Assembly (NCBI GenBank): GCA_964577465.1
Contig: CAZNZF010000002.1
Span: 1,336-65,335, forward strand
Length of the DNA: 64,000 nucleotides
Reading direction: 5' to 3'
Source of the DNA: an uncultured bacterium
GTDB taxonomy: Bacteria; RBG-13-66-14
Numbering within the stretch: the stretch's first letter is position 1; each line of letters opens with the position of its first letter. The notes beneath the pieces were generated by a model, which did not search any database, had not been told where the DNA came from, and saw nothing but the letters and a program-made list of their open reading frames with translations. The position numbers and the translations under genes are program-made. Below are positions 4,899 through 60,940 of the stretch, in pieces.

Positions 4899-5524
4899 AG
4901 AAGAAGAAGGTCCCCCAGGCCACCGTCCACCGCCTCTCGCTCTACACCCGCTACCTGGGCGAGTTGGAGACCCAGGGCGAGGACTACGTCTCCAGCGAGA
5001 GGCTGGGGGAGGGCGTGGGCACGAACGGGGCCCAGGTCCGTAAAGACCTGAGCTTCTTCGACCGTTTCGGCATCCCCGGCCGGGGTTATCCGGTGAGCTT
5101 CCTGCGCAAACGGCTGGCGAACATCCTCGGTGTGGGGGACAAGGTGTGGCGGGTGGCGGTGGTGGGGGCCGGAAGGCTGGGGGCGGCGCTGGTGGGCTAC
5201 AGTGTTTTCGAGAAGCAGAGCTTCCACTTCGTCGCCATCCTGGACAACGACCCGGCGAAAATCGGCACGCGGGTCAACGGTCTCGAGGTCAGCGACATCA
5301 GAGACCTCCGCGGAATCGTCGCCTCGGAGAACGTGGAGGTCGCCGTAATCACCGTCCCCGTGCACAGCGCCCAGCAGGTGGCCGACATGCTCGTGGAGGC
5401 CGGGGTGCGGGCCCTGTTGAATTTCGCCCCGGCCAAGCTGGACGTCTCCCCGCAAATCGCGCTGCGCAACGTAGACCTGGCCGTCGAGCTGGAAGGGTTG
5501 TCCTTCCACCTCATCAACCGCTGA
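4895..5524 (+). CDS. rex: Redox-sensing transcriptional repressor Rex
   Basis: N-terminal wHTH (TVHRLSLYTRYL) plus Rossmann fold (RVAVVGAGRLGAAL), diagnostic of Rex. ATGA overlap with the upstream gene. Confidence 0.85.
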   Translation: MKKKKVPQATVHRLSLYTRYLGELETQGEDYVSSERLGEGVGTNGAQVRKDLSFFDRFGIPGRGYPVSFLRKRLANILGVGDKVWRVAVVGAGRLGAALVGYSVFEKQSFHFVAILDNDPAKIGTRVNGLEVSDIRDLRGIVASENVEVAVITVPVHSAQQVADMLVEAGVRALLNFAPAKLDVSPQIALRNVDLAVELEGLSFHLINR

Positions 5525-10358: not shown

Positions 10359-10655
10359 ATGAAAGACCTCCAGTTTGTCTTCAACCGTCCGGAAAAGAGC
10401 TCGCGCGGGCTTCTGATTCTGCGTCTGTTCTTCGCCTGGATCTATGTGGGCATCCCCCACGGGCTGGCCCTGATGTTCCGCGGCATTGCCGCCGGATGCG
10501 TCTTGTTCGTCGCCTGGTGGGCGGTGCTTTTCACGGGTGCCTGGCCGGAGAAGATGTTCAGCTTCGTCTCAGGGACCTATCGCTGGTCCATGCGCGTTAT
10601 GGCTTATATGGCCTTCCTCACCGACGAGTACCCGCCGTTCACCGGGAAAGAATAG
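10359..10655 (+). CDS. Small membrane protein (DUF4389-like)
   Basis: 98 aa with two hydrophobic helices. Purine-rich AGGAAGGAAGAAG stretch upstream of the ATG. Confidence 0.45.
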   Translation: MKDLQFVFNRPEKSSRGLLILRLFFAWIYVGIPHGLALMFRGIAAGCVLFVAWWAVLFTGAWPEKMFSFVSGTYRWSMRVMAYMAFLTDEYPPFTGKE

Positions 10656-14645: not shown

Positions 14646-14715
14646 GCCGGGCTTTTTAGTAAAACCTGACGGGGGCGGTCCTCCGCGGGCCGCCTTCGCT
14701 TGGGTGGAGTCGAGA

Positions 14716-22289: not shown

Positions 22290-22340
22290 AGGTAAAAGGT
22301 GTAGGGCGGCCCTTCCACGGGCCGCCGAAAAGGGCGGGGC
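22290..22340. repeat. REP-like element (GTGTAGGGCGGC + hairpin), single copy
   Basis: GTGTAGGGCGGCCCTTCCACGGGCCGCC: a GTAG-led palindrome. The 12-mer GTGTAGGGCGGC is identical to the reverse complement of 29880-29891. Confidence 0.45.
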
Positions 22341-26779: not shown

Positions 26780-29653
26780 ATGACGTATATAGAGAAATTG
26801 CCACCCGAGTTCCGCCATCCGGCCGGGCTTTCCGGTCGCCGGAAGTACAGGCTGGTCAACGACCTTCCCGGTGCTGACCCCGGTCTGGACCGCATCTTCG
26901 AGGAGAGCCTGAACGTTGCCCGGCGCAGGGCTTTTCTCGTCGAGTGTGCCGGGGAGATGGGGGGCGACGGCGCCGCCTTTCGGGATGCGCTGGCCGACTT
27001 CGCGCGCGCGGCCGGGTTCAGGGTGATCCGAACCGCCGACCGGGGCGGGGTGGTGGAACCCCTGAGCCTGGCCAGGACGATCGTGGAGGGGTTCACCCCC
27101 TGGACGGAACTGGGTGAATCGCTCCCCACCGGGCTGGCGGAAAATCTCCACCTTATCGAGGAAGGCTACGCCGGAGACGTCGAAGGAAAAACCGGGGACG
27201 ACGAGCCTGATCCGACCGGTCTGCGCTGGACCCGGGTGGATTATACCATCGAGCTTCTCGGACGGGTCATGGAAGGGCCCACGGCGGTTTTCGCGGACAA
27301 CGCCGAGGGTGGAGGAGACCTGGAAACCCTGGCCGTTCTGGAAAGGCTGATGAGCGAGAGGAGCCACACGCCTCTTCTTCTGGTTTTGGGGGGGATAGGC
27401 GGCGCGGTCTCCTCCGAGTATTTTGACCGGGTGGACAGCCTCCACCTGCGCTACCTGCCCCAGGTCCGGTCCGAGGAGTTGGGGAGCCTCGGCGGGGAGC
27501 TGGGTCGGAGACTGAACCCGGGGCAGTTCGAGCATTACCTGGCGGAACTGCCCCGGAGCAGGATTCACGCCGAGCAGCTGCGGGCATTCTACGAGTTGGA
27601 CCTGGAAGGTGTGTTCGAGGAACGCCTGCTCACGTCGAAAACCCCCATCCAGCTCTTCATGTACCGCTGGGAGGGGCTGAAGGAGGAGGAAAAGAAGGTC
27701 CTGTGCGTCCTGGCCGGAGAGGCGCGCCCACAGTCGACGGAGGGCGTCGCGCGGGGCACCGGCTTCGGAAAGAAAAACGTGGAGAAGCTGCTGGGCGGGC
27801 TGACGGGGAAATTCTTCTGCGAGCGGGTGGGCGCGGCATACACACTCAGGGTGCCGCGTTTCGGCGGGTGGATAGCCGATTTCGCCGGTGAGATGATGGA
27901 CGACGTGCACCGGGCCTGGCTGTCCACGGAGGTCGAACCGGGGCGGAGCTTTGTCGAGGATTTTTTCCGGGTGAAGCGCCTCTCGGCCGTCGGTCGAGAC
28001 GACGAGGCCCTGACCGGAATGGTGGATGTTCTGAGGCGCCTGCACCGATCGGGCTTCTTCCCCACCATCTGCTCCCTGGAGCCCCTCGCGGAAGGAATCG
28101 CGTCCAGGGGCCGGGACAAAGGGTTGAGCCTTGAGGCCCGATTGAAACTCGCCCAGGCCGACATCGAGCTCCTCCGGTTCGATTCGGCTTTACGGCTTCT
28201 GGACATCGTCCGGGAATCGCTCTCGGCGGAGGACGACCCCTTCGCGGGTCGGGAGAGTCTCCTCCGGGGGGCCGTCCACGAGGCGAGGGGTGAGAACGAC
28301 GACGCGGTCCGGTGCTTTCGGGAGGCCGCGAAGCGGTTCGGTGAAACGCGGGAGGGGGCGCTGGCCCTTCGCCGGGCCGTGGACATCCAGGACACCCTCG
28401 GCGACCTCGAGCGGGACGGGTCTCTGGTGGACGAGCTGATGGGCTTTCCCGAGCGGGATGGCATCGGGTATGTGAAGAAGCTGATGAAGGCCAAGCACCT
28501 GAAGCGGGGCGGGAAGCTCGAGGAGGCGGGGGAAATCCTCGCCGACCTGGTCAAGGCGGTCAAGCGCGGCGGCATCACCTGGCTGGGAGTGTCGCCCGAG
28601 ATAGACCTGGGCAACCTCAACCGGCACATGGGGCGGCTGGAGGAGGCCGCGAAACTGCTCGGTGGGGCGGCGGAACGGGCCCGGCTCAGGGGTGACCTGC
28701 GGGGGTTGGCCGACGCCAAGTTGGGCCTGGCCGATATCCTCTACCTGCAGGGGCGCTTCGGTGAGGCGGCGGACCTCCACCTGGAATGCCTGCCGATATT
28801 CGACAGGGTGAGGGCGCCCTACGAGCGGATGACCATCCTGAACAACCTCGGCATGATTTACCTGAACTGGGGGAGGCTGGAGTCCGCCCTCGACTGCCTG
28901 GAGCGGTGCCGGGCGTACTTCGTCGGCACGCGTTACACGGCCTACCTCAACGCCGTGGAGCTGAACCTGGGGCTGGCGATGGTGAACCTGGGGCTGGCGG
29001 CCGAGGCGCTGACCACCCTGGACGGGCTCAAGGTCAGGCTGTCCGAGGAGAGTCCCTACCGCCGCATCCTGCTCTTCGTCATGGGTCGGGTGGCCCGGGA
29101 GCAGGAAAATCTCGTACTGGCCGAGGACCTCATGACGAAGGCGCTGGGCGGATTCCAGGAAACGTCCATGCTGGGTTGGGAGCTGAAGGCCCTCCAGCAT
29201 CTGGCTGAAATCATGGTGATGACCCAACGGCCGCAACGGGCGAAGGAGCTTATCGAAGAGGCCCTGCCCCGATTGGAGGGCCTGGGCTCGGACGTGCACC
29301 GGGCGGGTTTCCTGCAGGGGCTGGCGGAGGCCGAGCTGGCGCTGGGCGACGCCGACAAGGCCCTGGACCTGGCCCGGCAGGCCATGGTGCTCGACGAGAA
29401 GAGCGGCAATCCCGTCCACCAGGCCCTGCTGTATCACCTGATGGGACGCGCCCATCTGGCCCAGGGGGACAAGAAGGCGGCGAAAAACTCGCTCAAGAGT
29501 GCCTTGGACGAGCTGGAGGGGGTTCTGGGCGACCTGACGCAGGCCGGGCACCGGCGGTCCTTCCTCAGCCGTCCGGTCGTGCGGAATCTGTTCGCCACGG
29601 CCACGATGCTTTCCGTGAGCCTGGACCGGCGGAGGTTCGAGGAGGGGAGATAG
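26780..29653 (+). CDS. Large TPR-repeat protein with N-terminal non-TPR (possible STAND/MalT-like) region
   Basis: 957 aa. The C-terminal half carries many TPR helices (ILNNLGMIYLNWGRLESALDCLERC...). No clear Walker A motif was seen in the N-terminal half. Confidence 0.65.
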   Translation: MTYIEKLPPEFRHPAGLSGRRKYRLVNDLPGADPGLDRIFEESLNVARRRAFLVECAGEMGGDGAAFRDALADFARAAGFRVIRTADRGGVVEPLSLARTIVEGFTPWTELGESLPTGLAENLHLIEEGYAGDVEGKTGDDEPDPTGLRWTRVDYTIELLGRVMEGPTAVFADNAEGGGDLETLAVLERLMSERSHTPLLLVLGGIGGAVSSEYFDRVDSLHLRYLPQVRSEELGSLGGELGRRLNPGQFEHYLAELPRSRIHAEQLRAFYELDLEGVFEERLLTSKTPIQLFMYRWEGLKEEEKKVLCVLAGEARPQSTEGVARGTGFGKKNVEKLLGGLTGKFFCERVGAAYTLRVPRFGGWIADFAGEMMDDVHRAWLSTEVEPGRSFVEDFFRVKRLSAVGRDDEALTGMVDVLRRLHRSGFFPTICSLEPLAEGIASRGRDKGLSLEARLKLAQADIELLRFDSALRLLDIVRESLSAEDDPFAGRESLLRGAVHEARGENDDAVRCFREAAKRFGETREGALALRRAVDIQDTLGDLERDGSLVDELMGFPERDGIGYVKKLMKAKHLKRGGKLEEAGEILADLVKAVKRGGITWLGVSPEIDLGNLNRHMGRLEEAAKLLGGAAERARLRGDLRGLADAKLGLADILYLQGRFGEAADLHLECLPIFDRVRAPYERMTILNNLGMIYLNWGRLESALDCLERCRAYFVGTRYTAYLNAVELNLGLAMVNLGLAAEALTTLDGLKVRLSEESPYRRILLFVMGRVAREQENLVLAEDLMTKALGGFQETSMLGWELKALQHLAEIMVMTQRPQRAKELIEEALPRLEGLGSDVHRAGFLQGLAEAELALGDADKALDLARQAMVLDEKSGNPVHQALLYHLMGRAHLAQGDKKAAKNSLKSALDELEGVLGDLTQAGHRRSFLSRPVVRNLFATATMLSVSLDRRRFEEGR

Positions 29654-29744
29654 GAGCGGATGACGTGAAACGGCCCCGTCGCCGGGGTCATTCTTAATTT
29701 CCGTGAGGCGGGGGTGGCGATGGTGATTGCGTCAACTGCCGTGC

Positions 29745-30035
29745 ACCCGAGTGTAGTGCGGGGGCTCCGTACCCCGCCTGTTTTATTGACAACTGCGCCG
29801 TTAAATGTAGGGTGGGGACTTTAGTCCCCGCCGTTTTTACCCCTCACCCTAGCCCGTAGGCGAGCCTCCTCCCAGAGGGGCCGCCCTACACATATCGTTC
29901 GATGGCCATAGGGCGGGTGTCCGCACCTGCTCGTCAGCGGTAAAACAAATGTAGGGAGGGGCTCTGTACCCCGCCCCTGTCCCGCCGTCATGCGACCGGG
30001 CGGCACACGGAGTTGCCGCCCTACGTTTCATACGT
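29745..30035. repeat. Cluster of REP/BIME-like elements (GTAG(G)+GC-rich hairpin), five copies in alternating orientation
   Basis: Direct copies at ~29752, ~29808 (GTAGGGTGGGGACTTTAGTCCCCGCC) and ~29952 (GTAGGGAGGGGCTCTGTACCCCGCCC). Inverted copies at 29880-29893 and 30014-30027 (GCCGCCCTAC...). Confidence 0.5.
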
Positions 30036-30119
30036 TAGAAAATGGCGTAGATTCGGATCTCCATGCCTGCCCGCGGGCCGACCGGTCGGTCGGCCCCTAC
30101 GAGGTTATCGCTCCTCCCG

Positions 30120-31451
30120 TCAGTACCGGGGCACGTAGTACGTCGAGCGGTACTCGGCCCGGCGGTAGCGGTTGCGTTCGTGGTGGTCGCGGAAAACGTA
30201 GGTGATGAAGACGGCGTTGGCCGCGATGAGGGCCGCGGCGAAGAAGAACGGTGCCTGGGGCGCGATTCCCTCGTAAAGGTAGCCGGCGACGATGGGGCCG
30301 ACCACCAGGCCGAAGGAGGTGATGGTGCCCACGCCGCCCAGCACCGTGGCCCGGCCGCGCAGCGGCATGTTCTCCACGGAGAGGCTCATCCAGCTCGGCA
30401 GAATCATCGCCACGCCCGCTCCCGACATGAGCATCATGGTGTAGTAGAACCCGGCCCGGGTGATGAAGGGGAGCATGACCATGGCCGACGAGACCAGGAA
30501 CATCCCGAAAATCATCAGGTACTTGCGGCCGATGCGCTCGGCGTAACGACCCGCCGGGTACACGCACAGTATCGTCGAGAGGGACAGGAACAGAAAGCCG
30601 AAGCCGATCTGGTAGGTCTCGAGCTTCAGCACGTTGTCGGCGTAGAACACCAGCACGCTCGTGTTTATGCCCACGATGAACATGTTGATGAAGCCCTGGA
30701 GGGAGAGGGCCAGGAGCTTGCCGTTCTTGTAGAGCGCCGACAGGGCCTGCCCCAGCTCCCGCCACCAGTTGCGGACCACCTCGTTCCGGGGCAGGCGTTT
30801 CGCGGGCTGCCGTCTTCGGCGGCGCAGGGTCTCCTGCATGAAGAGGTAGGCCCCGAGCGCCGTAAGGCCGATGAGGATGGACGCCGACCAGAAGGTCCAC
30901 TTGGCGCCTCCCCCCTCGATTCCCCCGAACCAGTCCATGAGGTACAGCCCGATGGCCGGTCCGACACCGGAGCCCAGGGCGAAGCTCAGGTTCAATACCC
31001 CCAGGGCGGCGTCGCGCCGTTTGCGCCCCATCATGTCGGCCACCATGGCGTTGGCCGCCGGCCAGATGACCGAGTTCCCCGTCCCGTCCATAGCGCGGAT
31101 GGGGATGTAGAGCCAAATCAGCCAGGAGACGTTTATGAATGAGAGAAGAAGGGGGCTCAGGCAGGAGATGGTCAGGCCGATGGCGATCATCAGCCGCCGC
31201 CCGTAGCGGTCGGCCAGGGAGCCGCCGAAGATTTTCAGGAAGGTGTTGGTGAAGGGGAAGGCCGCGATGGCCACGCCGACCATACCGACCGTGGCGCCCA
31301 GGACCTTCGTCGAGTAGAGCTGGAGCGCCGGGATGACTATCCCGTACCCCAGCTCCGCGGCGAAGATGGCCGCGATGAGGAGGATGTAGTTCCGCGTGAC
31401 CTTGACGTTGCGGAGACCCGTAAGACCGCGTATCGTCGCTTTGTCGCTCAT
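30120..31451 (-). CDS. MFS transporter
   Basis: 12 predicted TM helices. MFS motif GGSLADRYGRR. The start was chosen at MSDKATIRGL. Confidence 0.8.
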   Translation of the reverse strand: MSDKATIRGLTGLRNVKVTRNYILLIAAIFAAELGYGIVIPALQLYSTKVLGATVGMVGVAIAAFPFTNTFLKIFGGSLADRYGRRLMIAIGLTISCLSPLLLSFINVSWLIWLYIPIRAMDGTGNSVIWPAANAMVADMMGRKRRDAALGVLNLSFALGSGVGPAIGLYLMDWFGGIEGGGAKWTFWSASILIGLTALGAYLFMQETLRRRRRQPAKRLPRNEVVRNWWRELGQALSALYKNGKLLALSLQGFINMFIVGINTSVLVFYADNVLKLETYQIGFGFLFLSLSTILCVYPAGRYAERIGRKYLMIFGMFLVSSAMVMLPFITRAGFYYTMMLMSGAGVAMILPSWMSLSVENMPLRGRATVLGGVGTITSFGLVVGPIVAGYLYEGIAPQAPFFFAAALIAANAVFITYVFRDHHERNRYRRAEYRSTYYVPRY

Positions 31452-56556: not shown

Positions 56557-56608
56557 AGGTATCGGATGCGACCGAAGGCGGGTTGGGGCCCGCCTTTTTA
56601 TACGGGAG

Positions 56609-56766
56609 AACGTAGGGCGCGGAACCGTGCGAATCGAGTTATACGAAGCAAATCCCTTCACCGCTGTTTCCGTTTGCGATGGCGTAGGGGCGGGCCTCTG
56701 TTCCCGCCCGCGAATGTACGGCGACCTCTGTACACCTGAACGCCGGGTGGGGAGTCCCTTCCCCGC
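56609..56766. repeat. REP-like elements (same family as 29745-30035) in intergenic region
   Basis: AACGTAGGGCGCGG at 56609. GCGTAGGGGCGGGCCTCTGTTCCCGCCC at 56681-56708. GGGTGGGGAGTCCCTTCCCCGCC at 56744-56766. Confidence 0.45.
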
Positions 56767-56865
56767 CGTGCCTGTAAGCGAGCTGCTTCCCCATATGGGA
56801 AAGGAGCCTGGAATCTCGGGCGGGACGTGTTGAGCCCGCTCTTTTTTATGCGTGAACCGAGCGGT

Positions 56866-57906
56866 TTAAAGTCCAGACAAACCTTTCAGCGTCTCCCCGT
56901 ATGGCGGTCGGACGACCCCGCGCTCGGTGACGAAGGCGGTGATGTAGCGGTACGGGGTCACGTCGAAGGCGGGGTTGAAGACGGTCACCTCCGGCGGCGC
57001 GGTCTGTACGCCGCGGAACCGGCGGACCTCGTCGGGTTCGCGTTCCTCGATGGGAATCCCGTCCCCGGTGGGGAGGCTGAAATCGAAAGTGGAGAGCGGG
57101 GCGGCGACGTAGAACGGCAGGCCGTGCTCCCGGGCCAGGACGGCCAGGCCGTAGGTGCCGATTTTGTTGGCCGTGTCACCGTTGGCGGCGATGCGGTCCG
57201 CCCCGGTGATTACGCAGTCCACCAGGCCGCGGGCCATGACCGTGGCCGCCATGTCGTCGCAGATGAGCGTGACCGGTACGCCGGATTTCTCCAGCTCCCA
57301 GGCGGTGAGCCGCGCCCCCTGCAACAGCGGCCGGGTTTCGTCGGCGAAGACGCGGATTTTTTTGCCCGCCTCCACCGCGGCGTAGACGACGCCCAGGGCG
57401 GTGCCGTAGTCCACGGTGGCCAGCCCCCCGGCGTTGCAGTGGGTCAGAACGGAAGAGCCGTCCGCCAGGAGCGCCTGACCGTGGCGCCCGATGGCCCGGC
57501 AGGTGTCCCGGTCCTCGGCCAGGATGGCGAGCGCCTCGTCGAGGAGGGCCCGTTTCACGGCCTCCGGCTCCGCGTCGGGCATCCCCTCGACCGCGGACGT
57601 CATCCGCTCCAGGGCCCAGGTGAGGTTGACCGCCGTAGGGCGGCTCGACGCCAGGTAATCCGCCGCTTGACGAAGCGCCTTTTTGAGGCTATCGTATGTG
57701 GTGAAAGCGCCGTCCCGGACGGCGACGTACAGACCCAGCGCCGCCGCGACACCGATGGCCGGAGCGCCCCGGACCTCGAGCCGGTGAATCGCCCGGTGGA
57801 CGTCCTCGACGGTCTCCAGGACGACGTAGCGCTCCTCGGTCGGCAGCCGGGTCTGGTCGAGGATGACCAGCGAGTCTTTCTCCCAGGCGATGGTTTTCAC
57901 CGGCAC
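56866..57906 (-). CDS. mtnA: eIF-2B alpha/beta/delta family isomerase (S-methyl-5-thioribose-1-phosphate isomerase MtnA-like)
   Basis: LVILDQTRLP N-terminus. THCNAGGLATVDYGTALGV and GADRIAANGDTANKIGTY motifs. GTG start at 57906. Confidence 0.75.
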   Translation of the reverse strand: MPVKTIAWEKDSLVILDQTRLPTEERYVVLETVEDVHRAIHRLEVRGAPAIGVAAALGLYVAVRDGAFTTYDSLKKALRQAADYLASSRPTAVNLTWALERMTSAVEGMPDAEPEAVKRALLDEALAILAEDRDTCRAIGRHGQALLADGSSVLTHCNAGGLATVDYGTALGVVYAAVEAGKKIRVFADETRPLLQGARLTAWELEKSGVPVTLICDDMAATVMARGLVDCVITGADRIAANGDTANKIGTYGLAVLAREHGLPFYVAAPLSTFDFSLPTGDGIPIEEREPDEVRRFRGVQTAPPEVTVFNPAFDVTPYRYITAFVTERGVVRPPYGETLKGLSGL

Positions 57907-57978
57907 GGCGCGACCTCCGGTAGGGTTGACCGCTAAACCATCCCATCTCGGGGGCGCCCTGTCAAGCCCCGTGACATA

Positions 57979-58623
57979 ATGGAACAAGACAATCAAGGTT
58001 GGCGCGGGATTCGCCGTTACCTGCTGTTGTCCCTGCTGGTCAACCTGCTGATTCTGATGTGGGTCATCCGGCTGGGGGTGGCGCGGGGGGAGCCGCCGAA
58101 CCGCAGCGGAGGGCCCATCAGCGTCCTGTCCATCGTCACCGAACCCGACGCCGAGCCGCAGCGCCTGGCGACCATCCGCCAGCTCATCGACGGGGTTACG
58201 CAGCCCATCGTGGTCGAGGACAGGGACATCGAGACGGAGAAGGAGCAGGGGCAGCCGGAGGAGGCGAGCGACCAGACGACGCCGGCGGTGGAGACCTTCG
58301 ACTTCCGCTACAACTACAACGTGCCGGCCGTCATCGTCCAGCCGGTCCTCGTCGGCGGGCGGCACGACCCGGTCATGCCGGAGTCCCTCGCCAGCTCCCG
58401 GTGGGAGGGGACGGTCACGCTGGGGCTCCTGATTGACTCCCAGGGGCGGCTGGTGGACCTGTGGGTGGAGGAGTCCTCCGGCCGGGAGGACGCCGACCGC
58501 GACGCCCTGACCTGCTACCGCGACACCCAGTGGCGGCCGGCCACCGTGGACGGGAAGCCCACCATCTGCCGGCTCTTCGTGAAGGTGCCCTACGAGATGG
58601 CCTACCAGACGACCATGTTTTAG
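57979..58623 (+). CDS. TonB family protein (energy transducer, C-terminal TonB domain)
   Basis: N-terminal TM anchor. Pro/Glu-rich linker. C-terminal WEGTVTLGLLIDSQGRLVDLWVEESSG... Confidence 0.7.
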   Translation: MEQDNQGWRGIRRYLLLSLLVNLLILMWVIRLGVARGEPPNRSGGPISVLSIVTEPDAEPQRLATIRQLIDGVTQPIVVEDRDIETEKEQGQPEEASDQTTPAVETFDFRYNYNVPAVIVQPVLVGGRHDPVMPESLASSRWEGTVTLGLLIDSQGRLVDLWVEESSGREDADRDALTCYRDTQWRPATVDGKPTICRLFVKVPYEMAYQTTMF

Positions 58624-59376: not shown

Positions 59377-59480
59377 CCCGACCAGTTCCTAATAAACGGA
59401 GACAAGGGGTTTAAACCCCTTGCCTATAGAATAGAAGAAGCGAGCCGTGGGGCCCGCTTTTTTATCGTGGAATACCTGGC

Positions 59481-60896: not shown

Positions 60897-60940
60897 AAAA
60901 TCCCCCCGATGGGGCAAGGGGTTAAAACCCCTTGTCGCCG

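Follow-up and report, generated by a model that had tools for sequence, protein, structure and literature searches.

We analysed a 64,000-nt stretch of bacterial chromosome with about 64% GC (hereafter the window), in which two convergent genes, one for a tetratricopeptide repeat (TPR) protein and one for a major facilitator superfamily (MFS) transporter, enclose a non-coding gap at 29654–30119. The gap is delimited by gene-like open reading frames (ORFs) with high third-position GC. It holds a cluster of short hairpins with a GTAG head, which very probably are GTAG-tagged repetitive extragenic palindromes (REPs), repeats that can flank genes for REP-associated tyrosine transposases (RAYTs, or TnpA-REP). 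Reading the sequence and running a GTAG-hairpin scan gave six clear units and one decayed unit, four on the plus and three on the minus strand. A preliminary description had counted five copies here, three direct and two inverted. The motif is real and lies where it was placed, and the clear direct heads are indeed three (29753, 29807 and 29951, with a decayed plus-strand unit at 29908). The inverted heads are also three (29889, 30024 and 30100), and the last of these units, at 30075–30100, falls just outside the range described before. The features of the locus are given below, with DNA fold energies and with E values from the covariance model introduced further on.

26780–29653, plus strand: gene for a TPR protein of 957 aa, left neighbour of the cluster
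29672–29689, plus strand: likely intrinsic terminator of the TPR gene, outside the REP family, GGCCCCGtcgcCGGGGTC followed by ATTCTTAATTT
29753–29778, plus strand: u1, GTAGTGCGGGGGCTCCGTACCCCGCC, with T-rich tail TGTTTTATT, terminator-like; fold −7.3 kcal/mol; E 0.011
29807–29832, plus strand: u2, GTAGGGTGGGGACTTTAGTCCCCGCC, with tail GTTTTTA; fold −8.5 kcal/mol, z −4.1; E 2e-4
29838–29880, plus strand: second repeat module, CCCTCACCCTAGCCCGTAGGCGAGCCTCCTCCCAGAGGGG, overlapping u3; multi-copy in the non-syntenic contigs L184, L206, L209, L198 and L235
29856–29889, minus strand: u3, GTAGGGCGGCCCCTCTGGGAGGAGGCTCGCCTAC, inverted and imperfect; fold −10.4 kcal/mol; E 0.22
29908–29930, plus strand: decayed unit from the hairpin scan, ATAGGGCGGGTGTCCGCACCTGC, head ATAG; weak fold, z −1.0; E 7
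29951–29976, plus strand: u4, GTAGGGAGGGGCTCTGTACCCCGCCC; fold −6.7 kcal/mol; E 0.11
29998–30024, minus strand: u5, GTAGGGCGGCAACTCCGTGTGCCGCCC, inverted; fold −10.8 kcal/mol, z −3.4; E 2.4e-4
30075–30100, minus strand: u6, GTAGGGGCCGACCGACCGGTCGGCCC, inverted, 19 nt past the MFS stop codon; fold −12.2 kcal/mol; E 7e-5
30120–31451, minus strand: MFS transporter gene, right neighbour of the cluster and convergent with the TPR gene

Each unit begins with a Y-GTAG(G/T)G head, of which GTA(G) is unpaired, and continues with a GC-rich stem of 6–9 bp and a loop of 4–8 nt. Stems in the cluster are perfect or near-perfect, those of u3 and u4 being imperfect, and different stem types occur in both orientations. 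DNA folds of the window units range from −6.4 to −12.2 kcal/mol and leave the head unpaired. Two pairs of units form dimers with GTAG at both outer ends, u2 with u3 (29807–29889) and u4 with u5 (29951–30024). The arms of each dimer differ in stem, and centroid folds keep them separate. Spacing between successive heads is irregular (54, 82, 62, 73 and 76 nt), with spacers of 20–60 nt.

The individual units have relatives in other contigs, whose loci are numbered with the prefix L. Allowing two mismatches, u1 has 23 matches across 21 metagenome loci. There are 8 copies of u2 with at most one mismatch, in 6 loci not selected for the u2 subtype, and 5 exact copies of u5 in 5 loci not selected for the u5 subtype. 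The imperfect u3 resembles the long-stem subfamily GTAGGGCGGCCCCGTGGGATGCATCCCCTGCGGGCCGCC of L148 and L218, and u4 is one deletion away from GTAGGGCGGGGGCTCTGTACCCCGCC, of which at least 8 copies are among the matches listed. Even the decayed unit at 29908 resembles a subfamily, GTAGGGGCGGGTGtccaCACCCGCCC (9 copies).

Hairpins of this design exceed chance expectation by a wide margin. The pattern GTAGNGNGGGGN{4,12}CCCCGCC matched three times in the window and not once in 100 shuffles. Of the 21 GTAGGG hexamers in the window, 5 have a perfect GC hairpin (6 bp or longer) starting within 3–5 nt, compared with about 1% for 29 other permutations of the hexamer, so that such hairpins are some 24 times commoner after GTAGGG than after the controls. 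We then ran a covariance model over the whole window without filters; its 38 distinct seed units all came from outside the window, and GTAGGG was invariant in them. Six matches with E of at most 0.011 were obtained (56681–56712, 22298–22329, 30072–30103, 29804–29835, 29996–30027 and 29750–29781), all of them intergenic, followed by 29948–29978 (E 0.11) and 29856–29892 (E 0.22). Thus the nine best matches include eight of the family, none of them within a gene, and one borderline match at 57632 (E 0.016) that is intragenic.

The intergenic bias that the preliminary description had proposed looking for is present. The non-coding part of the window, about 12% of its length, contains every family unit, and across 72 GC-rich contigs 12 of 232 units (5%) fell within a crude mask of coding sequence spanning 62% of bases. 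In the non-coding DNA of those contigs, a hairpin follows 61% of GTAGGG hexamers (209 of 341) and 0–5% of most control hexamers; the exceptions were TAGGGG, which overlaps GTAGGGG, and GGTAGG (12 of 96). The contigs behind these statistics were fetched by the motif itself, which inflates unit density but does not touch either comparison, that of coding with non-coding DNA or that of GTAGGG with control hexamers.

The family extends well beyond the window. Scanning genome contigs with GTAGGGNGGGGN{4,12}CCCCGCC returned at least 119 loci (L001–L119), and a narrower metagenome scan returned at least 120. In approximately 130 of the 143 matches listed, the free position is C, the base needed for pairing, and stems extend with matching bases. 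The commonest variants among the matches listed are GTAGGGGCGGGGCTCCGTCCCCGCC (at least 37 copies), a CTCTGT version (at least 29) and GTAGGGCGGGGGCTCCGTACCCCGCC (at least 22). Every window subtype recurs in the fetched, non-syntenic contigs, even u2, u5, u6 and u7, which played no part in the fetching; these contigs therefore carry the same subtype set as the window; with up to three mismatches, the fetched metagenome contigs hold 13 copies of u6 and 9 of u7. Several of the large contigs contributed two or more repeat-bearing loci, among them Ga0315289_10000010 with three. A doublet of the form GTAGGGGCGGGGCTCCGTCCCCGCCC-GCGGGC(C)GACC..GGTCG(G)CCCCTAC recurs in the related contigs.

Pooling the window, L018, L120 and the GC-rich metagenome contigs gave 294 GTAGGG-hairpin units with 146 distinct sequences. 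Their stems are mostly 8–9 bp and their loops 4, 6 or 8 nt, 272 of them have a pyrimidine at position −1, and 229 have a G after the stem. The commonest loop in related contigs is CTCYGT. Six of the eight stem pairs changed on both sides (81 cells) in a compensatory manner. The covariation score was 0.756, compared with 0.165 in shuffles and at most 0.16 with slid partners; the units had been chosen for perfect stems, so the paired percentage follows from the selection, and the information lies solely in how varied the pair types are.

Outside the cluster, the window contains the following single units and remnants.

22301–22326, plus strand: single unit GTAGGGCGGCCCTTCCACGGGCCGCC (= GTAGGGCGGCCCttccacGGGCCGCC), 178 nt after infB, between convergent genes; fold −11.1 kcal/mol; E 3e-7
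56684–56709, plus strand: single unit GTAGGGGCGGGCCTCTGTTCCCGCCC, with TTGCGATGGC just before it, between convergent genes; E 1.8e-7
56746–56767, plus strand: hairpin GGTGGGGAGTCCCTTCCCCGCC without a GTAG head, probably a relic; E 1.3, covering model positions 7–32 only
14674–14694, plus strand: hairpin GGCGGTCCtccgcGGGCCGCC, 29 nt after a gene, with the mutated head GACGGGG in place of the GACGTAGGG of relatives; E 2.6

A 12-mer from the cluster, GTGTAGGGCGGC, had been reported to recur at 22297–22308. It does recur, within the full unit at 22301, at 22299–22310 on the plus strand (in the cluster it occupies 29880–29891 on the minus strand), against a chance expectation of 0.02. Copies had also been placed at 56609–56766. 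Here the unit at 56684–56709 is a good one, with 24 matches in 24 loci at up to two mismatches; 56603–56629 is a very weak match, and 56746–56767 lacks the GTAG. Upstream of the 56684 unit (56674–56683) stands the motif TTGCGATGAC, which is common to many loci. Stem and loop of the hairpin at 14674 are identical to those of gtagGGCGGTCCctccgcGGGCCGCC, a unit of L018. The intragenic match (GTAGGGCGG at 57635, or GTAGGGCGGCTCGACGCCAGGTAATCCGCCGCT at 57632–57667 on the plus strand) lies inside an IF-2B-family gene (56866–58365, minus strand) and is probably due to chance, the alternative being an old intragenic unit. In total, the window carries 9–11 units in 4–5 separate intergenic regions of its 64 kb, three of the loci having convergent neighbours and one following a co-directional gene.

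Among related units more widely, the decamer TTGCGATGAC directly precedes GTAG in about a third or more (for example in L148, L173, L176 and L198), and another set is preceded by AAAT. The second repeat module, of the form CCCTCACCC-TAGCCCGTAGGCGAGCCTCC(C)CCCAGAGGGG(GGAGGGG), occurs in the window at 29838–29880 and at about 56760–56800; it often lies beside a GTAG unit and holds a GTAG and hairpin of its own. A different palindrome, (G)ACAAGGGGTTTAAACCCCTTG(TC), is found at 59400–59425 and 60911–60934 and again in L206 near 13100, and may represent another small repeat family. An Rfam search of the window and of the cluster matched no family, and a search of the window for tRNA and tmRNA genes found none.

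We compared the locus with those of close relatives. Homologues of the MFS protein are encoded on JGI contig Ga0180429_10010583 (L120; 97% identical) and on DAOVLG010000064.1 (L121; 83% identical). The latter comes from the same assembly as DAOVLG010000463.1 (L018), whose record is titled 'Candidatus Coatesbacteria bacterium'. Because gene order around the MFS gene is also kept in L120 and L121, we take the window to be from an uncultured relative of that 'Candidatus Coatesbacteria' metagenome-assembled genome (MAG). Genes of the window and of L120 are about 90% identical, and yet the two sequences align only as far as 29670 and again from 30073, with 402 bp between these points in the window and 93 bp in L120. 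The relative is without some 310 bp of the cluster and holds only u6 and one further inverted unit. In L121 there is an RsgA gene and no unit at the place of the cluster. Alignment is likewise lost exactly at REP clusters in two other orthologous pairs, L198/L233 and L217/L218. These comparisons show gain or loss of units over a short evolutionary scale; they record the turnover itself, without its mechanism.

The enzymes that move such repeats were sought with an E. coli YafM sequence as probe, and all matches were re-checked against Pfam (PF01797) and NCBIfam (NF047646, REP_Tyr_transpos, the equivalog 'REP-associated tyrosine transposase', cutoff 80 bits). The preliminary description had suggested looking for a RAYT flanked by these elements. 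Such genes were found in L049, L202 and L243–L249, in other genomes, and none in about 550 kb of contigs tied to the window's lineage. L049, from an Opitutaceae MAG, encodes a 166-aa RAYT (113 bits with NF047646) with GCCGCCCTAC-N20-GTAGGGCGGGGTCGCCGAACCCCGCC on both flanks. The L202 RAYT is flanked by inverted GTAGGGCGGGGGCTCCGTCCCCCGCC, one base from a common relative of u1, and the same sequence flanks the RAYT of L243; source records call homologues of the L202 protein 'REP element-mobilizing transposase RayT' or REP-associated tyrosine transposase. Contigs of these homologues have the layout of classic REPtrons: in L243, the gene is preceded by three units in tandem and an inverted one, and is followed by three units. 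An inverted pair of units accompanies the L244 RAYT, and alternating arrays of GTAGTGCGGGCACTCCGTGGCCCGC and GTAGTGCGGGGACTCTGTGCCCCGC accompany those of L245/L247, with similar arrangements in L248 and L249. The GTAG hairpins beside the L244, L245/L247, L248 and L249 RAYTs have loops of the CTCCGT, CTCTGT, CCTGTG or CTACGT type. Among these REPtrons the stems vary, but a CTCYGT or CCTGTG-like core recurs in most loops, as it does in u1, u4, u5 and the 56684 unit.

Some further observations were made on these loci. In L243, the first GTAG unit downstream supplies, with its TAG, the stop codon of the RAYT gene (10456–10459). The genome of origin, GCA_054773435.1, holds a second RAYT paralogue (L248 8001–8507) with a different REP type. 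Two RAYT-like ORFs on minus strands, L106 4890–5402 and L051 7033–7542, from Oscillospiraceae and Flavonifractor MAGs, scored 61.7 and 71.4 bits with NF047646, both below the cutoff. Each carries two inverted GTAGGGCGGGG..CCCCGCC hairpins in frame, bracketing the HUH motif; in L106 these encode VGRGALTPP (5239–5264) and GGVRAPRPT (5068–5093). Hairpin stems of L106 and L051 differ in a compensatory manner that alters the encoded peptide, and at other Clostridia loci those hairpins are intergenic. Two weaker profile matches on repeat-bearing contigs, L191 12732–13019 and L225 5008–5493, were rejected as ordinary IS200 TnpA proteins (WNCKYHIVF..., PDHVHML), unrelated to the RAYT clade.

GTAG-tagged REPs are a known class. 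The available part of the survey by Di Nocera, De Gregorio and Rocco (2013, BMC Genomics 14:522; PMC3733652) reports them from more than 80 species in 8 phyla, in a superfamily that includes the SMAG repeats of S. maltophilia and the GTAG-17/19/20 families of Opitutus terrae. It describes stems of 6–9 bp, subfamilies with complementary stem changes, and clusters as well as dimers with GTAG outside, inside or in tandem. The repeats stand mainly after genes, between convergent or co-directional ORFs, occasionally within genes, and flank RAYT genes. Our units share with that description the unpaired GTAG and GC-rich stem-loop of 6–9 bp, the subfamilies defined by stem changes with some G-T pairs, the occurrence as singles, dimers and clusters, the post-gene sites, the REP-flanked RAYTs, and a TAG stop codon provided by GTAG (L243). 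They differ in their Coatesbacteria-related host, which lies outside the phyla named in that part of the survey, and in loops of 4–8 nt (often CTCYGT) where mostly 2–4 nt are given there. A Y-GTAGGG head, and TTGCGATGAC upstream of about a third of related units, also set them apart from what is described there. The window units are placed beside the numbered families of the survey by description and not by consensus sequence.

Resemblance is also close to the group 3 REPtrons of S. maltophilia and Marinomonas (Corneloup et al. 2021; PMC8266576), which have the same perfect stem of about 8 bp, conserved loop and 5' GTAG. In group 3 RAYT systems, loop bases and GTAG are the recognition determinants, and cleavage occurs at CT or CA beside the hairpin (PMC8266576). 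Such units flank RAYT genes of one clade in L202, L243, L244, L245, L248 and L249. The bacterial interspersed mosaic elements (BIMEs) of E. coli, mosaics of Y and Z REPs, likewise combine several REP types in alternating orientation within one intergenic region. In E. coli, however, REPs have a bulged stem that the group 2 RAYT requires, defined linkers and integration host factor sites, whereas the stems here are perfect and the 20–60 nt spacers are unrelated. The window units are therefore not E. coli-type REPs, and the earlier BIME label holds for the alternating arrangement only. With REPINs (Bertels and Rainey 2011; PMC3116915) the units share inverted REP pairs with a short spacer; the two arms here have different stems and form a doublet, not one long hairpin, so that definition fits loosely.

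Taken together, we put at roughly 85% the probability that this region is a cluster of GTAG-tagged REPs. The earlier assignment to a GTAG-tagged REP family is supported by every feature that could be tested: the unpaired head with its hairpin, the intergenic position, the mixed-orientation clusters, the many copies and subfamilies, the differences between relatives, and the association of this hairpin design with RAYTs elsewhere. Since RAYTs in other genomes are flanked by the same hairpin design and loop core, we infer that the window units are substrates of such a RAYT. The enzyme would be encoded elsewhere in the genome and would spread and reshuffle the units, as non-autonomous elements, on single-stranded DNA, binding the folded hairpin and GTAG and cutting at a nearby dinucleotide. 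RAYT mobilisation is the best-supported origin, and a role at the level of the host is possible. Placed in the 3' regions of both neighbours, with those nearest each gene in sense orientation, the units probably form part of transcript 3' ends, where u1 and u2, with their T-rich tails, may act as terminators or 3'-end stabilisers.

Several points weigh against this interpretation, in addition to the two effects of selection described above. As the preliminary description had noted, the window has no RAYT gene: a profile search of all its ORFs found no RAYT and no Y1/HUH protein in 64 kb. None was found either in about 550 kb of repeat-bearing metagenome contigs tied to the lineage, and look-ups of RAYT homologues (P0009, P0012, P0015, P0016 and P0018) returned REPtrons of other lineages and none of the window's. 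The RAYT-bearing contigs L202 and L243–L249 lack the lineage-typical flank TTGCGATGAC. No target-site signature or clean pair of filled and empty sites could be resolved in the orthologous contigs compared. At the level of single units the fold z-scores are modest (−1 to −4), and the sole record of the identical MFS protein is a 1.5-kb Logan contig, which breaks off at the cluster.

An alternative is that the units are relics of a once-active REP family that persist only because they serve the host, for instance in protein binding, supercoiling or mRNA stability, with no active RAYT left. The failure to find a RAYT for the lineage in the window or its contigs fits this idea, as do the lost heads at 29908, 14674 and 56746 and the imperfect stems of u3 and u4. 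There is also a precedent, since many E. coli strains have lost their RAYT and kept their REPs, according to PMC3733652. However, 64 kb is too little to judge the absence of a RAYT. Unit content differs strongly between genomes that are about 90% identical in neighbouring genes, which suggests recent turnover, and several contigs have copies of u5 and u2 that are exact or nearly so. We consider this explanation unlikely.

Placement between convergent genes raises the question of whether the hairpins are simply intrinsic, rho-independent terminators of those two genes, their likeness reflecting a common terminator design. In support of this, u1 and u2, which combine a GC stem with a T-rich tail, are scored as terminator-like, and REPs are known to influence transcript 3' ends. 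However, a T tail is present in just 2 of the 7 cluster units and in neither the 22301 nor the 56684 unit, and the TPR gene already has its terminator-like hairpin at 29672. The obvious terminators of the window (10978, 35941, 43503, 49434 and 52407) form a separate class with A/T-tract flanks and no GTAG. A conserved loop, an unpaired and conserved Y-GTAGGG head, and near-identical copies across unrelated intergenic regions and contigs are all things that a terminator can do without, and this account is very improbable.

Scarcely credible is a reading of the two dimers as miniature inverted-repeat transposable elements derived from an insertion sequence with a DDE transposase, in which GTAGGG...CCCTAC would be the terminal inverted repeats of elements of 74–83 bp (29807–29889 and 29951–30024). 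Both pairs do have GTAGGG and CCCTAC outermost, and element-like content varies between relatives. Against this, single units are common (22301, 56684 and many contigs), each arm is a hairpin of its own and paired arms have different stems, target-site duplications were not seen, and the transposase genes found directly flanked by such units are Y1/HUH RAYTs only, with no DDE enzymes. A CRISPR (clustered regularly interspaced short palindromic repeats) array was rejected on the mixed orientation, irregular spacing and differing unit sequences.

Returning to GTAG-tagged REPs, the breadth of the family may hint at a larger pattern. At least eight stem types share the Y-GTAGGG head, with many copies carrying a CTCYGT loop or the upstream TTGCGATGAC, and among the matches listed the near-identical hairpin design GTAGGGCGGGG...CCCCGCC occurs in MAGs labelled as at least 10 phyla. 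The labels on those matches include Verrucomicrobiota/Opitutaceae, Rhodobacteraceae, Oscillospiraceae, Acidobacteriota, Planctomycetota, Armatimonadota and Chloroflexota, among others. Our tentative, and still doubtful, suggestion is that the lineage hosts an unusually diverse radiation of GTAG-REPs, served by a RAYT clade that reads mainly head and loop, tolerates any stem and has spread across phyla. If true, this would offer a natural system for the evolution of RAYT-REP specificity and would be evidence against strictly vertical inheritance of REPs and RAYTs.

For annotation, 29654–30119 and the other sites are best treated as repeat DNA and not as regulatory or coding sequence. REP clusters are also the reason why assemblies of the lineage break at repeat sites, as with the contig of the identical MFS gene. 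The finding extends a known class, the GTAG-tagged REPs, to an uncultured candidate lineage and brings no new mechanism. Its value lies in a catalogued family that could serve as a model for the diversification of REP subtypes.

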